Shown here piece by piece: positions 8,218 through 26,345 of a stretch of 64,000 nt of DNA (the first letter of the stretch is position 1; the number at the start of each line of letters is the position of its first letter). The notes under the pieces are model-generated. The model was not told where the DNA came from. It searched no databases and worked only from the letters and a program-made list of their open reading frames with translations. The translations under genes and the position numbers were made by a program. Origin of the DNA: an uncultured bacterium (GTDB lineage Bacteria > Patescibacteriota > JACMRA01); assembly GCA_963784355.1 (NCBI GenBank), contig CAWAQU010000003.1, positions 96,001-160,000 of the forward strand. The letters are read 5' to 3'.

Positions 8218-8293
8218 TGGTGGACCCGGTGGGATTCGAACCCACGACCAAAAGATTAAGAGTCTTCTGCTCTACCAACTGAGCTACAGATCC
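8218..8293 (-). tRNA. tRNA-Lys (anticodon CTT), CCA encoded
   Basis: GGATCTGTAGCTCAGTTGGTAGAGCAGAAGA-CTCTTAA-TCTTTTGGTCGTGGGTTCGAATCCCACCGGGTCCACCA cloverleaf. Confidence 0.97.
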
Positions 8294-14756: not shown

Positions 14757-14766
14757 CTAATCAGAT

Positions 14767-14882
14767 ATCGGCTTTGGCCTACTTTCCCCGGAATCTGCAT
14801 TCCAGTATCATCAGCGTAGCTGCGTTTCAAGACTCTGTTCGGAATGGGAAGAGTTGGTTCCACAGCACTTGGAAAACCGACA
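14767..14882 (-). rRNA. rrf: 5S rRNA, stand-alone; ends approximate
   Basis: CCCATTCCGAAC loop C, GATGATACT and GGGAAAGTAGG motifs; terminal helix TCGGTTTT/AAAGCCGA. Confidence 0.93.
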
Positions 14883-19635: not shown

Positions 19636-20277
19636 TTAATTTTGTGGAACAATTTGCTTGGGGCTAGGTATTTTTTCTACGATTGTTTCAAGTAATTTAT
19701 CAACTCCCAATCCTGTCTTAGCGCTTACATGCAATATTTCATCTCTTGGATAACCTAAAATTCTTTCAATTTCCTCACTTCTAGTTGCAATATCCGCATT
19801 TGGTAAGTCAATTTTATTTAAAACGGGGATAATAGCCAAATCCTGTTCCATTGCTGAGTATAAATTTGCTAGAGTTTGAGCTTGAATACCTTGGGTAGCG
19901 TCTACTACAAGCACCGCGCCTTCACAAGCGGCCAAACTACGGGAAACTTCATAAGAAAAATCCACATGTCCGGGTGTATCTATTAAGTTTAAAACGAAGT
20001 TTTTGCTTTTCCAAGACTCGTATTTTTGGATATCTTCAGTACTCAGATCAATCATTTCATCATTTTCAGCAGTAAACTGATAATTATAATTCATTCTAAC
20101 AGGCTGTAACTTTATTGTGATGCCTCTTTCTCTTTCCAAATCCATTTTATCTAGGGCCTGCTCTTTCATATCACGCATAGTAACAGTGCCAGTAAGCTCC
20201 ATTAATCTGTCGGCTAAAGTACTCTTCCCGTGATCAATATGGGCAATAATACAAAAATTTCTAATAAACTCAAGCAT
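19636..20277 (-). CDS. lepA: Elongation factor 4 (LepA), G domain only
   Basis: [50 protein letters not shown] and SAKTG motifs; 213 aa, ends after IPSP. Confidence 0.9.
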
Positions 20278-22473: not shown

Positions 22474-23019
22474 TCAACTAAACTGATAGCCTTTCAATTG
22501 ATTTTTATGGTTTTTAAAATCAAGATCAAACTTGCCGACCAGATCCCAAAAAGATTTAGAGTGGTTTTTTTCTTTTACATGAGCAAGTTCATGGATTGCC
22601 ACATAGTCTAGTAGCTCAAGTGGCACCAAGGCCAGTCTCCAGTTTAGACTAATCACATTTTTACCGCTACAAGAACCCCAGCGCGTATTAGCACTTGAAA
22701 GACGAAATTTAGTATAATTTAAGTCCATAACTTCTGACCAATGATCCAGTCTAGACTTAAGTAAAACTCTGGCTTTCTTTTTAACTTCAACCTCTTCGCT
22801 TTTAGCAACCCCAAGATTGGGGGCAGTATTTCGCTTTCTTTCTAAAACTCTTTTGATAGTATTTTGTATCCAAATCTGTTTTTTTTGAATAAAATCGTGT
22901 ATGAGATTTAAATTTGCTCTATTGGGTGCCCTTACTATCAATTCCGCATCTTTGGTGATTTGCAGACTGAGAGTTTTGCGTTTTGAGTAAATGATGTTTT
23001 TGGGAGTAATAAGGCTCAT
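22474..23019 (-). CDS. YgjP/DUF45 zinc metalloprotease-like protein
   Basis: RKTLSL, RWGSCS, HELAH and NHSxxFW motifs. Confidence 0.9.
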   Translation of the reverse strand: MSLITPKNIIYSKRKTLSLQITKDAELIVRAPNRANLNLIHDFIQKKQIWIQNTIKRVLERKRNTAPNLGVAKSEEVEVKKKARVLLKSRLDHWSEVMDLNYTKFRLSSANTRWGSCSGKNVISLNWRLALVPLELLDYVAIHELAHVKEKNHSKSFWDLVGKFDLDFKNHKNQLKGYQFS

Positions 23020-26000
23020 TATGATTCTTTTGATTCAAAAAACCTAGCTACATTCCAGATTTTATTTCCAAAATTGCGATATTTTTCACACATTTTGTCC
23101 GCAAGTTTTCCACCGAGTCTAAAATTACGATTTGGAATCATGTTGCTCATCATCGCCAATCTAAGACTATCTGAAGAAAATTTTTCAATCTGATCTTCCA
23201 CATTTAACCCGTTACCTAGGGATTTGCTCATTTTTCGTCCATGCTCGTCTAGAACAGTTGGGTGAATAACTACATTTTGGTAAGGAGTGCTGCCTGTAAA
23301 GTATTTTGAGACCAACATCATGCGCACAATCCATTGGTAAAATATCTCTCTGGCACTAACTAAATCTTTGGTAGAGTAATATGTTTCAAAATCAGTATTT
23401 TTCTGCCCTTGCAGATGGTCTAAATATCCAAGTGTACTAAGCGGCCACAAACAAGAACTAAACCATGTATCTAGTATTTTTGTTTCCTGCATCCAATTTC
23501 CTGGAATTTCAGGTTTTTCCGTACCGATTTGGATTTTTTCTTGGACTGCAGGATCATTTTGCCACTCATTAAAATTATAAAAAATGCGATTTGGATTTTT
23601 TTCTAAATTGTACCACACAGGGAATCGATGACCCCAAACCAGGTCTCTTGAAATACACCAGTCTTTTACACTTTCCAGATAGCTTATTGCTCTGTCTTTA
23701 AACTCTACCGGGTAAAAATTAGTTTCCTCAGCAGCTTGTAAACCGATTTGCTGTAAATTATTGGGTTTCTCAAGCCAAATTACTACAAGACCGTTGCTTT
23801 GAATTTTGTTGTAGTATTGCTCACCAAAAAGATTTTTATAGGTTTCTTTTATATCATTTATGGTATAATTTTCTTGAATTTCGGGTACAATTTGTGTGAA
23901 ATCAAGTTTTACACTTGCAGCTGAATCTAGATTCTGATATGTCTCAACTTTTTTAATGTTAAATTTGTAAATTTTGTTGTTTACTTTATCATTTAATTCT
24001 ATAATATCTCCTGATTTCATATCACCAAAGTATTTGTCTGGTTCTTCAGGATTTAAAGCCCTAGTTTCAACAGATTTTTCTCCTGATAGGATTTTATTTA
24101 AAATATCTAACTGTAGATCATTTCTAAAATTTAAAGACCAGGTTTTAGTATTGCTATCTTCACCAGTACTTTTTACTACAGGATTAGTGTAGCTCAAGAA
24201 GAACTCTTCTGAAATTAGGGGTTCAATAACCGTTTTTGATCTCTCGCAAATTACCACATTATGCTCATAATCCCAATTTATATCCAGTTCTTCACCAATT
24301 AAATCACGTAGAAATTTTATTCCTTCTTTGTATGAGTAGTTTGCTGGATCAAAAGCTTCACTTTTTAGACTTTTGGCTACTTTTTCCCTAATTTTTGCTT
24401 CCTGTTCAATAAATTCGGTTTTTACTGGTACAAATTCTGTTTCTATAAGTTTTTTAATAACTGCTAACCTACCCTGCTCTACCGTCAACCCTTCAAACTC
24501 ACCACAAGCTTCAGTAAGTTTTCCATCTCGATTTATAGGATGCTTAAATCCAAAGCTATACCAACTTTTATTTAAAAATTCTTGATATAATTCATAATCA
24601 AATTGATCACTGGCCGGAGTGATTTTTAATATACCTGTACCAAAATCCGGATCGACTTTTTCAGAAATCAGAAGCCTAATCTTTTTTATATCCAAACTGG
24701 GTAGCTCAAAAGATATACCTAAAAGACCCGTTTTAATTGCTTCAATGGTTTCCAATGCAATTTTTTCATCAAATCCCCCATGGTCTCTTTCAAAAAGATC
24801 TAAGTTAAAGTATTCATAAAATTTACTTGGGTGCATGGCGATTCCAATATCCCCAAAAATTGTCTCCGGCCTAACAGTTGATACTTTTACTCTGGGTAAT
24901 TCAAGAGCGGATTTAATATATTTAGAAGCAAACTCATACAAAAAGGCTTTGTCCGGATTTTTATTTTGATCAAACTCCACCCCACTAAATTTATACTCAA
25001 AAGTAATAAACGGATCCACTCTATTTTCGTACTCAATTTCCCCGGCCACATCACTCACCGCAGTTTGCAGGCCAACGGACCAATTCACCAAATAGCTCCC
25101 TTTGTAAATCAACCCATCTTCCCAGTACTTTTGAAAAGCATAATTTATCATTTTATTAGCTCGCTCGTCTAAAGTAAACAAACTTCTTTGATAGTCCGGA
25201 GTGTCTCCCAAAATAGAACTTTGCATTTTTTGATGATCTCGCCACTCATCCACCTTGGACCAAGCTAAATCAACCCAAAGTTCTCGGTTATTTTGTTTTA
25301 ACCACTTTGGCCAAGTATTTTTTTCAATATCTTTCAATTCAGGTGCTGTTTCTAAGATTTTTTCATCAAAATCACCTTTTTTAATCAATTTATCAATCAC
25401 CCCTTCCAACTGTATTCCGGCATGATCTACTCCCGGATACCATAAGGTTTTTTGAGCTTTTTGTCTGTGAATTCTGGTTAAAGTGTCCATTAAATAGTGT
25501 TGAAAAGCATGTCCTGTATGTAAGGCTCCAGTAAGATTTGGCGGGGGCATTAAAATGCTATAATTCTCGTTAGCACCTACCTCCTTATGTAAAAATTCAA
25601 TTATTTTAGGACTGATTGGGTACATTTTAGTCGCATAAAAGTCATATTTTTCCTGCTCAGATGTAAATTCATTAGTGGTGTGTCCAATTTCATCTGGTAT
25701 AAAGAAAGTAGAATAAGAATTTTCAATTCCAAATATAGGCTTTTCTGTAGCAGTACCCTGTGTGATATGTTCTTCAGTTAATATTTCTCCATTTGGCAAG
25801 GCAATAGCCAGAGCCTGCACCACATACATTTTTCTGTCTTTTCCTTCAAGTTTTTCTAAGGCCTCATGAATTTTTTGCTCGGCAAATCTATCCCTATCTT
25901 CTTTAGACAATGAGTTGAAATATTCATCACTATCTCCAAACATTACTTTTTTACTATCCGTTCCAGGCCAATCTAAAGCTGAAAAGACAAAGCCCCTGTC

Positions 26001-26345
26001 TTGTGAAATTGTGGGTAAATTACTAATTTTAGCATATTCTTTAGCTTTAGTCAGGGCATCCTGTGTAAAACTCTCTCCGGTTTCTTCAACTTCAGGAAAA
26101 TCAATATGTGGTAAATCATTCAAAGTCAGCAGTTCAAAATGCTTATCTAGAGCAAGTTTTTGCCAAGCTAATTTAAAAATTTTAATTTTGTGTTTGTTGG
26201 TAGTTGCAAACAGGACTTTTTTTAATGAAGTCTCTAAATTTTGATTTTTTATTTGAATTTCAGGTGAACCCACTCCATTATTTTGCCAGGTATTATAGAT
26301 ACTTTCTTCAAATTCTTTCGGATTATAGCTGCTAGGCAAAGACAT
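23019..26345 (-). CDS. valS: Valyl-tRNA synthetase catalytic part, with inserted Ham1 and ASCH domains, lacking the C-terminal anticodon-binding region
   Basis: PPPNLTGALHTGHA, GVDHAGI, STVRPET, DWCISR, LDTWFSS, KMSKSLGN and NKIWNVARF motifs. Confidence 0.9.
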   Translation of the reverse strand: MSLPSSYNPKEFEESIYNTWQNNGVGSPEIQIKNQNLETSLKKVLFATTNKHKIKIFKLAWQKLALDKHFELLTLNDLPHIDFPEVEETGESFTQDALTKAKEYAKISNLPTISQDRGFVFSALDWPGTDSKKVMFGDSDEYFNSLSKEDRDRFAEQKIHEALEKLEGKDRKMYVVQALAIALPNGEILTEEHITQGTATEKPIFGIENSYSTFFIPDEIGHTTNEFTSEQEKYDFYATKMYPISPKIIEFLHKEVGANENYSILMPPPNLTGALHTGHAFQHYLMDTLTRIHRQKAQKTLWYPGVDHAGIQLEGVIDKLIKKGDFDEKILETAPELKDIEKNTWPKWLKQNNRELWVDLAWSKVDEWRDHQKMQSSILGDTPDYQRSLFTLDERANKMINYAFQKYWEDGLIYKGSYLVNWSVGLQTAVSDVAGEIEYENRVDPFITFEYKFSGVEFDQNKNPDKAFLYEFASKYIKSALELPRVKVSTVRPETIFGDIGIAMHPSKFYEYFNLDLFERDHGGFDEKIALETIEAIKTGLLGISFELPSLDIKKIRLLISEKVDPDFGTGILKITPASDQFDYELYQEFLNKSWYSFGFKHPINRDGKLTEACGEFEGLTVEQGRLAVIKKLIETEFVPVKTEFIEQEAKIREKVAKSLKSEAFDPANYSYKEGIKFLRDLIGEELDINWDYEHNVVICERSKTVIEPLISEEFFLSYTNPVVKSTGEDSNTKTWSLNFRNDLQLDILNKILSGEKSVETRALNPEEPDKYFGDMKSGDIIELNDKVNNKIYKFNIKKVETYQNLDSAASVKLDFTQIVPEIQENYTINDIKETYKNLFGEQYYNKIQSNGLVVIWLEKPNNLQQIGLQAAEETNFYPVEFKDRAISYLESVKDWCISRDLVWGHRFPVWYNLEKNPNRIFYNFNEWQNDPAVQEKIQIGTEKPEIPGNWMQETKILDTWFSSCLWPLSTLGYLDHLQGQKNTDFETYYSTKDLVSAREIFYQWIVRMMLVSKYFTGSTPYQNVVIHPTVLDEHGRKMSKSLGNGLNVEDQIEKFSSDSLRLAMMSNMIPNRNFRLGGKLADKMCEKYRNFGNKIWNVARFFESKES

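Follow-up and report, generated by a model that had tools for sequence, protein, structure and literature searches.

The 64,000-nucleotide stretch analysed here (the window; contig CAWAQU010000003.1, positions 96,001 to 160,000, of the Patescibacteria assembly GCA_963784355.1) contains a gene for valyl-tRNA synthetase (ValRS) which ends ahead of the anticodon-binding domain, and the missing C-terminal part is encoded by a separate gene on another contig of the same assembly. We consider it very probable that valS has undergone a genuine, heritable gene fission in this lineage, and that the enzyme consists of two polypeptides, which assemble into a heterodimer charging tRNA-Val.

The N-terminal part is encoded by an open reading frame (ORF) of 1108 amino acids (aa), whose product has the C-terminal sequence ...NKIWNVARFFESKES. 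The relevant features of this gene and of its 3' end are the following:

23019..26345, minus strand: gene of the ValRS N-terminal subunit, 1108 aa plus TAA stop (ORF list, Pfam, NCBIfam)
25509..25520, minus strand: HIGH-type signature HTGH, residues 276-279, found in the translation within the tRNA-synt_1 match
23220..23234, minus strand: KMSKS loop, residues 1038-1042, its columns invariant across nine aligned N-part tails
23040..23075, minus strand: terminal helix NFGNKIWNVARF, residues 1091-1102, which by prediction docks into the C subunit's helical bundle
23017..23021, minus strand: TAATG junction, where the ValRS stop codon and the start codon of the next gene share one base (read from the sequence)
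22474..23019, minus strand: gene of a YgjP-like (DUF45/M48-type, HExxH) metallohydrolase, 181 aa (Pfam, E 8.8e-44)

The ORF carries the Rossmann catalytic body, the CP1/editing region, the KMSKS loop and the first long helix after the stem-contact region (domain names as for the Thermus thermophilus ValRS structure). The Pfam model tRNA-synt_1 spans residues 258-1067 (E 4.1e-83). Among the NCBIfam families (valine--tRNA ligase: NF004349 / TIGR00422) the top match is NF004349 (E 4.7e-138, 461.8 bits), against 1e-48 for ileS. That the protein is a truncated ValRS is confirmed by the lack of any anticodon-binding domain (Anticodon_1 and Val_tRNA-synt_C were absent in the Pfam scan of the ORF) and by the coverage of the NF004349 profile, which ends at 580-582 of 860 positions. 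Translation terminates six residues past the helix NFGNKIWNVARF, a motif kept in all N parts and in the fused relatives, in the linker preceding the helix that opens the Anticodon_1 model. The last A of the TAA stop codon (23019-23021) is the first base of the ATG of the YgjP-like gene, which follows directly downstream; an in-frame TGA comes after this TAA. The truncation and the TAATG overlap with an unrelated gene were noticed in an initial annotation of the window, and the ORF list, the sequence and the Pfam matches bear them out. Two details of that annotation need adjustment. The truncation does come soon after KMSKS, but with the loop at residues 1038-1042 of 1108 the distance is 66 residues and not about 60. 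The stop was placed at the start of the anticodon-binding domain; this domain is indeed missing, but one long helix is retained and the stop lies in the linker.

The same annotation predicted that the C-terminal half is encoded elsewhere, and a search with the Anticodon_1 profile found it in the window's own assembly (G000; 1.14 Mb in 13 contigs, 81% complete and 1.5% contaminated as estimated from markers). The profile matched three places: a 1224-aa frame on contig C7, taken as IleRS from its weaker match to the valS profile, a 394-aa frame on contig C9, which is the C part of LeuRS, and a 274-aa frame at C9:138136-138546, which corresponds to the following gene:

G000:C9:137779-138591, minus strand: gene of the ValRS C-terminal subunit, 271 aa, own ATG, Anticodon_1 and Val_tRNA-synt_C

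In the 271-aa protein Pfam locates Anticodon_1 at residues 16-152 (E 1.9e-17) and the ValRS-specific coiled-coil arm, Val_tRNA-synt_C, at residues 208-257 (E 2.3e-07). Its top NCBIfam family is again NF004349 (profile positions 585-859 of 860, E 7.6e-35, 120.4 bits; ileS 1.9e-06). For both parts valS is the top synthetase family, above ileS, leuS and metG. When the valS profile was run on the genome, positions 28-227 and 300-582 were matched in the window and positions 583-859 on C9. On the T. thermophilus enzyme (1gax_A, 862 residues) the tail of the N part aligns with residues 378-591 and the C part with residues 620-849. The two ORFs, each having its own start and stop, jointly cover a single-chain ValRS without overlap or loss. 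The halves are on different contigs (C3 and C9). The N-part gene is 57 kb away from the closer end of C3 and the C-part gene 18 kb away from the closer end of C9, which by contig coordinates puts at least 75 kb between them. The G+C content of the two contigs is similar (32.8% and 33.8%). Genes for tRNA-Val(UAC) and tRNA-Val(GAC) are both present on contig C12.

The break is shared with relatives. The family comprises 26 species-level genomes and the whole class, a small one of Patescibacteria metagenome-assembled genomes, 27, and the split or fused state was assigned from explicit ORF calls of the fetched loci. A homologue of the C part was present in 26 of 26 family genomes: in 16 it was a stand-alone frame (265-329 aa), in the other 10 it was fused to preceding ValRS sequence.

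Split, C part stand-alone: G000, G001, G004, G008, G010-G013, G015, G018, G019, G021-G024, G041
Fused: G002, G003, G005-G007, G009, G014, G016, G017, G020

The stop of the N part is visible in 12 of the 16 split genomes (in G004, G015, G019 and G041 the N part either continues past a contig end at its 3' side or its 3' end was not found). In all 12 it is TAA or TAG, 2-18 residues past the ARF of the conserved helix NFGNK[ILMV]WN[VI]ARF. Thus 11 further family genomes, each assembled independently, show the breakpoint that the initial annotation had proposed to look for in relatives. Each of the 16 C parts has an ATG no more than 12 codons ahead of the start of similarity, just before the helix S.AS.WIL. 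One split genome, G018, is a single contig of 1.27 Mb, and G001, which belongs to the same genus as G000, has the identical order of ValRS N part followed by the YgjP-like gene. With translation table 11, 665 frames of at least 200 aa cover 78% of the G000 genome, and as the stops are TAA or TAG, recoding of TGA is not at issue.

Outside the class, 134 genomes of the phylum were sampled, of which 92 matched the C-part profile at E <= 1e-10 and 42 did not. This split was found in none of the 92 matching genomes, and 90 of the matches were in frames of at least 667 aa. Short frames in G140 and G144 were considered as candidates for the same split and rejected, the former because of a contig end, the latter because of a frameshift elsewhere, with overlapping frames near residue 975.

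Both halves of valS are under purifying selection. In the closest pair of genomes (G018 and G022) the C part has a dN/dS (the ratio of nonsynonymous to synonymous substitution rates) of 0.11, the N part one of 0.15 and the YgjP-like gene one of 0.07, values which come from one pair with dS of 1.0-1.4, i.e. near saturation. The class I catalytic signatures HIGH (HTGH) and KMSKS are intact in the N part.

The position of the cut can be described from the fused relatives. The linker between the two helices flanking the break is 15 residues long in G007, 18 in G016 and about 45-90 in G005, G006 and G020; in G000 the two tails (6 residues in the N part, 10 in the C part) sum to 16. In an AlphaFold model of the fused G007 enzyme (21-row alignment, mean pLDDT, the model's per-residue confidence, 86.9) a helix formed by residues 693-719, which corresponds to NFGNKIWNVARF, is followed by a 12-residue loop (720-731, block pLDDT 88) and another helix (732-754). 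The helices of this model and the alignments with 1gax_A place the cut one helix into the C-terminal helical region, just ahead of the start of Pfam Anticodon_1.

We also modelled the complex of the two subunits, using N-tail residues 864-1108 (9 of the 12 tails aligned) and the C part (all 16 aligned). The predicted complex scored 0.80, the best of three controls 0.00, with contact agreement of at least 97% and partner pLDDT of at least 87 in the runs. Of solved complexes, 58 of 80 reach the mark applied, as do 2 of 110 mismatched pairs; these counts hold only roughly for alignments supplied by the authors, such as ours. The confident interface involves the last two helices of the N part (residues 1057-1071 and 1092-1106, the latter being residues 229-243 of the modelled chain 1) and residues 34-96 of the C part. 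The prediction speaks for binding of the N and C subunits, unless the score stems from likeness to the solved single-chain enzyme.

We infer from these results that the two products associate and act jointly. The 1108-aa N subunit would contribute the Rossmann-fold catalytic body, which bears HIGH and KMSKS, together with the editing region and a single long helix, and the 271-aa C subunit the anticodon-binding helical bundle with the C-terminal coiled-coil arm. Assembly would most likely be non-covalent: helices ~1057-1071 and 1092-1106 of the N subunit would pack on helices 34-96 of the C subunit. This packing would restore a contact that ordinary ValRS makes within one chain, and tRNA-Val would be charged by the resulting heterodimer.

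The fission was probably caused by insertion of one or more foreign genes, e.g. the YgjP-like gene, into the variable surface linker, and in some lineages, G000 included, the C half would have been relocated later. The YgjP-like gene directly follows the N part in G000, G001, G018 and G022, and comes one gene later in G012, whereas no homologue was found in the fetched flanks of the fused valS genes; it probably descends from DNA that interrupted valS. In four genomes the C part is still downstream of the N part on the same strand, at 1.7 kb (G022), 3.0 kb (G012), 3.3 kb (G008) and 5.2 kb (G018), with other genes between. These intervening genes are heterogeneous and include a PIN toxin, an amine oxidase, DUF218 and several unknowns. 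The downstream location of these C parts and the YgjP-like neighbours fit insertion into the linker followed by dispersal of the C half.

To count the events a maximum-likelihood tree was built from the concatenated N tail and C part (507 columns; 31 rows, made up of the 26 genomes of the family, G025 and, as outgroups, those 4 of 12 fetched phylum loci whose C-part match was of sufficient length). Four changes of the split/fused label are needed on it, the well-supported branches force at least three, and a single change was allowed by none of 200 bootstrap trees. It must be noted that this is a gene tree, and that the split and fused groups were defined after seeing the data. Judged from this tree, the ValRS linker seems to have been broken repeatedly, or in some cases rejoined. 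A tree of the C part alone (265 columns) was dropped for this purpose, as it was poorly resolved: it needed six changes, its starred branches allowed one, and a single clade of split forms was not rejected by the approximately unbiased (AU) test (p 0.175).

The family shows further irregularities in valS. In G005 and G011 the N piece ends near the position equivalent to G000 residue 644 (loci L035/L063 and L055/L059), and G011 has a separate 178-aa piece covering approximately residues 978-1104. In G014 (locus L039) an in-frame TAG separates a 452-aa and a 533-aa frame. Inserts of ~200-370 aa occur at about residue 982 in G005, G008, G010, G013, G021, G023 and G024. The apparent breaks in G003 and G010 are contig ends.

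Two other kinds of short ValRS protein were encountered. About ten of the 24 proteins fetched from the representative search are 368-398 aa long and 24-32% identical to the C part:

ValRS C-terminal proteins of 368-398 aa: P0046, P0059, P0062, P0068, P0075, P0086, P0108, P0110, P0127, P0130

Most of these begin near the motif TG.DI.FFW, upstream of KMSKS; this may point to a second way in which ValRS is split in nature, or the gene calls may simply have been truncated by the shortness of the contigs. In other Patescibacteria classes, too, many ValRS frames are short (712-790 aa). These match only the first 90-140 positions of the C-part profile and, by this measure, seem to be without the C-terminal coiled-coil arm.

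Several points limit the case for a two-subunit ValRS as described above. No second valS was found in G000 by searches with the valS profile and tRNA-synt_1, and in particular there was no full-length copy, which the initial annotation had named as a possible objection; with an assembly that is 81% complete, this result holds for the assembled part only. Even when summed, the scores of the N part (461.8 bits) and the C part (120.4 bits) fall short of the 704 bits set as cut-off for NF004349, since the alignment is interrupted by the inserts and the split. Fused members of the family are also below the cut-off (e.g. G007 with 611.9 bits), whereas genomes of other classes in the phylum exceed it, thus we read the low score as divergence of the lineage and not as non-membership. 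Since the single-chain enzyme has already been solved (1gax), the passing score of the predicted complex may only mirror the known intramolecular interface. No transposase, integrase or other recognisable mobile-element gene was detected between the halves, and the origin by insertion is something that we infer from the arrangement of the genes. The run search listed no RNA run containing the stretch, and we found no expression or protein data. One soil-metagenome run contained 11% of the sampled words and yielded six short contig pieces, of which a single 36-base piece (23006-23041) covers the junction, with less than 31 bases on each side of 23019.

Among the alternatives to a heterodimer, the one to be taken most seriously is that the products do not form a stable enzyme. 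The N subunit would then be a self-sufficient minimal ValRS, or mainly a reader of the acceptor stem, and the 271-aa protein would be a separate tRNA-binding factor acting independently or transiently, perhaps with a new role. It would agree with this that the halves are unlinked in G000, and that the N subunit has gained a Ham1 domain and a weakly ASCH-like insert, which could add functions. The short Patescibacteria ValRS of 712-790 aa, matching only the first 100-140 positions of the C part, would also agree, as they indicate that parts of it are dispensable elsewhere; however, these enzymes retain the helical-bundle part in the same chain. We regard this explanation as improbable: the C part was kept in all 16 split genomes, it is under strong purifying selection, its best family remains valS over the full length, and the N subunit keeps the helix predicted to dock into the C bundle.

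It is very unlikely that the split is an artefact (misassembly, binning error or a sequencing-induced stop) or a sign of decay, with valS being a pseudogene and ValRS imported or replaced. Although G000 is a draft in 13 contigs and the read cover of position 23019 is thin, misassembly at the junction, a concern raised in the initial annotation, is excluded because 11 independent assemblies stop in the same linker and G001 shares the gene order. Stand-alone C genes with their own ATG in 16 of 26 genomes, the single-contig genome of G018, the similar G+C content of the two G000 contigs and the TAA stop, for which TGA recoding is irrelevant, speak equally against an artefact, and the low dN/dS values (0.11-0.15) and the intact catalytic motifs also against decay.

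Covalent rejoining of the halves into a single-chain ValRS by split-intein protein trans-splicing or by RNA trans-splicing, which might be suggested by the split dnaE of the same genome (split inteins join other split bacterial genes, e.g. cyanobacterial DnaE), is the least credible possibility, as tails of 6 and 10 residues make up an ordinary 15-18-residue linker with no room for intein halves, the stop of the N part overlaps the start of another protein gene, Pfam scans found no intein/Hint family in either valS ORF, and neither the window nor the surroundings of the C-part gene gave a group I or group II intron or any RNA family besides tRNA and 5S rRNA, in line with the earlier remark that nothing intein-like or intron-like is visible at the break. 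Automatic frames of 1705 aa (G022) and 1986 aa (G012), which looked as if they contained a large intein-like insert, were rejected after explicit ORF calls showed separate genes between the halves.

It is instructive to compare the two-gene ValRS with other synthetases. The full-text literature searched, including one candidate preprint, contained no description of a naturally split ValRS (most subscription journals were outside the coverage). In the source databases the short proteins of such a ValRS are just given the name 'valyl-tRNA synthetase'. The enzyme described here would be the first natural split found for ValRS, and would belong to the known, rare class of split synthetases. The closest system on record is Aquifex aeolicus LeuRS, an alpha-beta heterodimer from two genes with the active-site and tRNA-binding parts on separate subunits (PMC2377443, which cites Xu et al. 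2002, J Biol Chem 277:41590). It resembles G000 ValRS in being a class Ia synthetase, in its natural encoding as two polypeptides and in the separation of catalytic and tRNA-binding parts. The break points differ: in G000 ValRS the KMSKS loop and one further helix stay on the N subunit and only the helical bundle and the coiled coil are separated, whereas the Aquifex LeuRS break precedes KMSKS, within the catalytic body. Moreover, the ValRS fission varies within one family (16 split, 10 fused) and seems to have arisen or reverted at least three times.

In Nanoarchaeum equitans a split AlaRS is one of multiple split genes, which are interpreted there as derived traits of a symbiotic lifestyle (PMC3655853). 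The likeness to G000 ValRS consists in two unlinked genes and in a tiny, reduced genome with several split genes. The N. equitans enzyme is a class II, archaeal synthetase with another break point, whereas G000 ValRS is bacterial and has fused and split forms among its close relatives. The canonical T. thermophilus ValRS (PDB 1gax/1ivs/1iyw) shares with G000 all of HIGH, KMSKS, Anticodon_1 and Val_tRNA-synt_C, but is one chain instead of two, and the G000 N subunit has additional Ham1 and ~140-aa inserts. A ValRS C-terminal fragment solved alone (PDB 4xkz, 269 residues) is close in extent to the 271-aa C subunit; positions 6-158 of the C-part profile align with residues 37-199 of its chain (E 1e-12). 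This structure suggests that the C module folds independently, although by its length and name 4xkz appears to be a laboratory construct of a single-chain enzyme and not a natural gene product. Artificially split E. coli MetRS and IleRS, divided between their catalytic and anticodon-binding parts in fragment-complementation work of the Schimmel laboratory, are reported to reassemble non-covalently into active enzyme. Those cuts were engineered in other enzymes, whereas the ValRS fission is natural and conserved.

ValRS is not the only split enzyme in this genome. G000 LeuRS is also encoded in two parts, of 1046 and 389 aa (locus L088, G000:C9:118000-126500):

L088 3751-6891, minus strand: LeuRS N part, 1046 aa, with four in-frame NUDIX stretches (PF00293, E 1.3e-62) and the editing domain
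L088 2451-3029, minus strand: Ser_hydrolase-like ORF, 192 aa, between the LeuRS halves
L088 1251-2420, minus strand: LeuRS C part, 389 aa, with KMSKS and Anticodon_1, leuS_bact profile from position 437

The LeuRS gene of G001 is broken at this place too, but there the intervening ORF is an unrelated FMN reductase; an automatic frame suggesting one large G001 LeuRS was rejected by explicit ORF calls. Judged by profile coverage, dnaE appears to be split near profile positions 880-889, and the C-terminal pieces of lepA (EF4) and dnaE are adjacent, the latter starting four bases after the former, so that two orphan C-terminal halves stand side by side:

Window 19636-20277, minus strand: lepA (EF4) G domain, 213 aa, lepA profile 2-189
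G000:C6:76583-77803 (L093 1507-2724), plus strand: remainder of lepA, 405 aa, own ATG, profile 187-594
G000:C12:79999-82828: dnaE main frame, 955 aa, profile 6-889, ending at TAA
G000:C6:77816-78516 (L093 2728-3432), plus strand: dnaE C piece, own ATG, profile 880-970, running off the contig end

In G025, which represents the sister family, valS consists of three ORFs on one strand (locus L064, G025:C25:27000-38500). The third also carries Anticodon_1 and the coiled coil, and seven other ORFs, including NUDIX, HAD and Ham1 genes, lie between the pieces:

L064 8652-9860, minus strand: first G025 valS ORF, tRNA-synt_1 profile 2-184
L064 6863-7486, minus strand: second G025 valS ORF, tRNA-synt_1 profile 181-318
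L064 1404-2714, minus strand: third G025 valS ORF, tRNA-synt_1 profile 317-405

The N subunit of G000 ValRS has two in-frame inserts:

25650..26216, minus strand: Ham1/ITPase-like domain, residues 44-232 (Pfam Ham1p_like)
23760..24182, minus strand: insert of ~140 aa, residues 722-862, weakly ASCH-like (Pfam ASCH below cut-off)

The Ham1 insert is located between the ValRS N-terminus and the HIGH motif (Ham1p_like E 1.1e-19 with the whole ORF, 5.3e-21 with the segment alone). It is common to G001, whose BLAST match is continuous over residues 1-721 and then skips from residue 721 to 863, thus the ~140-aa insert is without counterpart in G001. The ASCH match to the latter (E 0.0011, profile positions 7-102 of 103) scored 20.1 bits, below the cut-off of 21.2, and a single-sequence AlphaFold model had a pLDDT of 52.3, too low for use. 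Homology of this insert to those of G023 and G024 was rejected by an attempted alignment. Scans for promoters and terminators around both valS genes gave nothing above shuffled expectation at relevant places. The window's only Rfam matches are a tRNA gene (8221-8293) and a 5S rRNA gene (14766-14881), both on the minus strand.

Nested enzyme domains are also common in long relatives of this ValRS. The 47 best hits of the representative search included 18 with a length of 1000 aa or more. Of these we scanned 15 (P0002-P0036), and 11 of the 15 had in-frame enzyme domains: HAD in six, GNAT in four, NUDIX in two and alpha/beta hydrolase in one, with one protein having three of these domains. The existence of the NCBIfam model NF040702, an IleRS with a GNAT domain, shows that annotators are already aware, in part, of domains nested in class Ia synthetases. 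The nested domains and the ORFs between gene pieces have cargo types in common. With Ham1 in ValRS, NUDIX in LeuRS and the YgjP-like gene next to ValRS, nucleotide 'house-cleaning' enzymes seem to recur in or beside synthetases here (the E. coli homologue of YgjP is annotated as a UTP pyrophosphatase). Such nested enzymes might be functionally coupled to the synthetases, e.g. by clearing adenylate-derived by-products.

A wider explanation, which we put forward only tentatively and consider less likely to be right than wrong, is that in this class-level lineage of Patescibacteria large translation and replication genes (class Ia synthetases foremost, but also lepA and dnaE) are landing sites for small enzyme genes, and that the inserted domain and the split gene are interconvertible states. 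The cargo (Ham1, NUDIX, HAD, GNAT, alpha/beta-hydrolase, YgjP-like) would sit either in frame or as free-standing ORFs, which would split the host gene into subunits that reassemble, and fission at the ValRS linker would have occurred or reverted several times.

Natural split synthetases are rare, and each of them is a natural experiment on how modular enzymes are built. In the present case ValRS is cut nearly exactly between the catalytic body and the anticodon-reading module, a boundary at which, according to a long-standing proposal, an anticodon-reading domain was added later to an older core that reads the acceptor stem. As fused and split versions occur in close relatives, the lineage offers matched pairs, in which the share of the covalent linkage in tRNA recognition, editing and speed could be assessed. 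The broader pattern (split leuS, lepA and dnaE, the three-piece valS of G025 and the nested domains) suggests recurring fission of essential genes in these reduced genomes, as in Nanoarchaeota, and genome annotation and marker-based estimates of completeness will miscount such split genes. The two-gene ValRS is real and conserved, and it stands within a lineage-wide tendency to split and decorate large information-processing genes.

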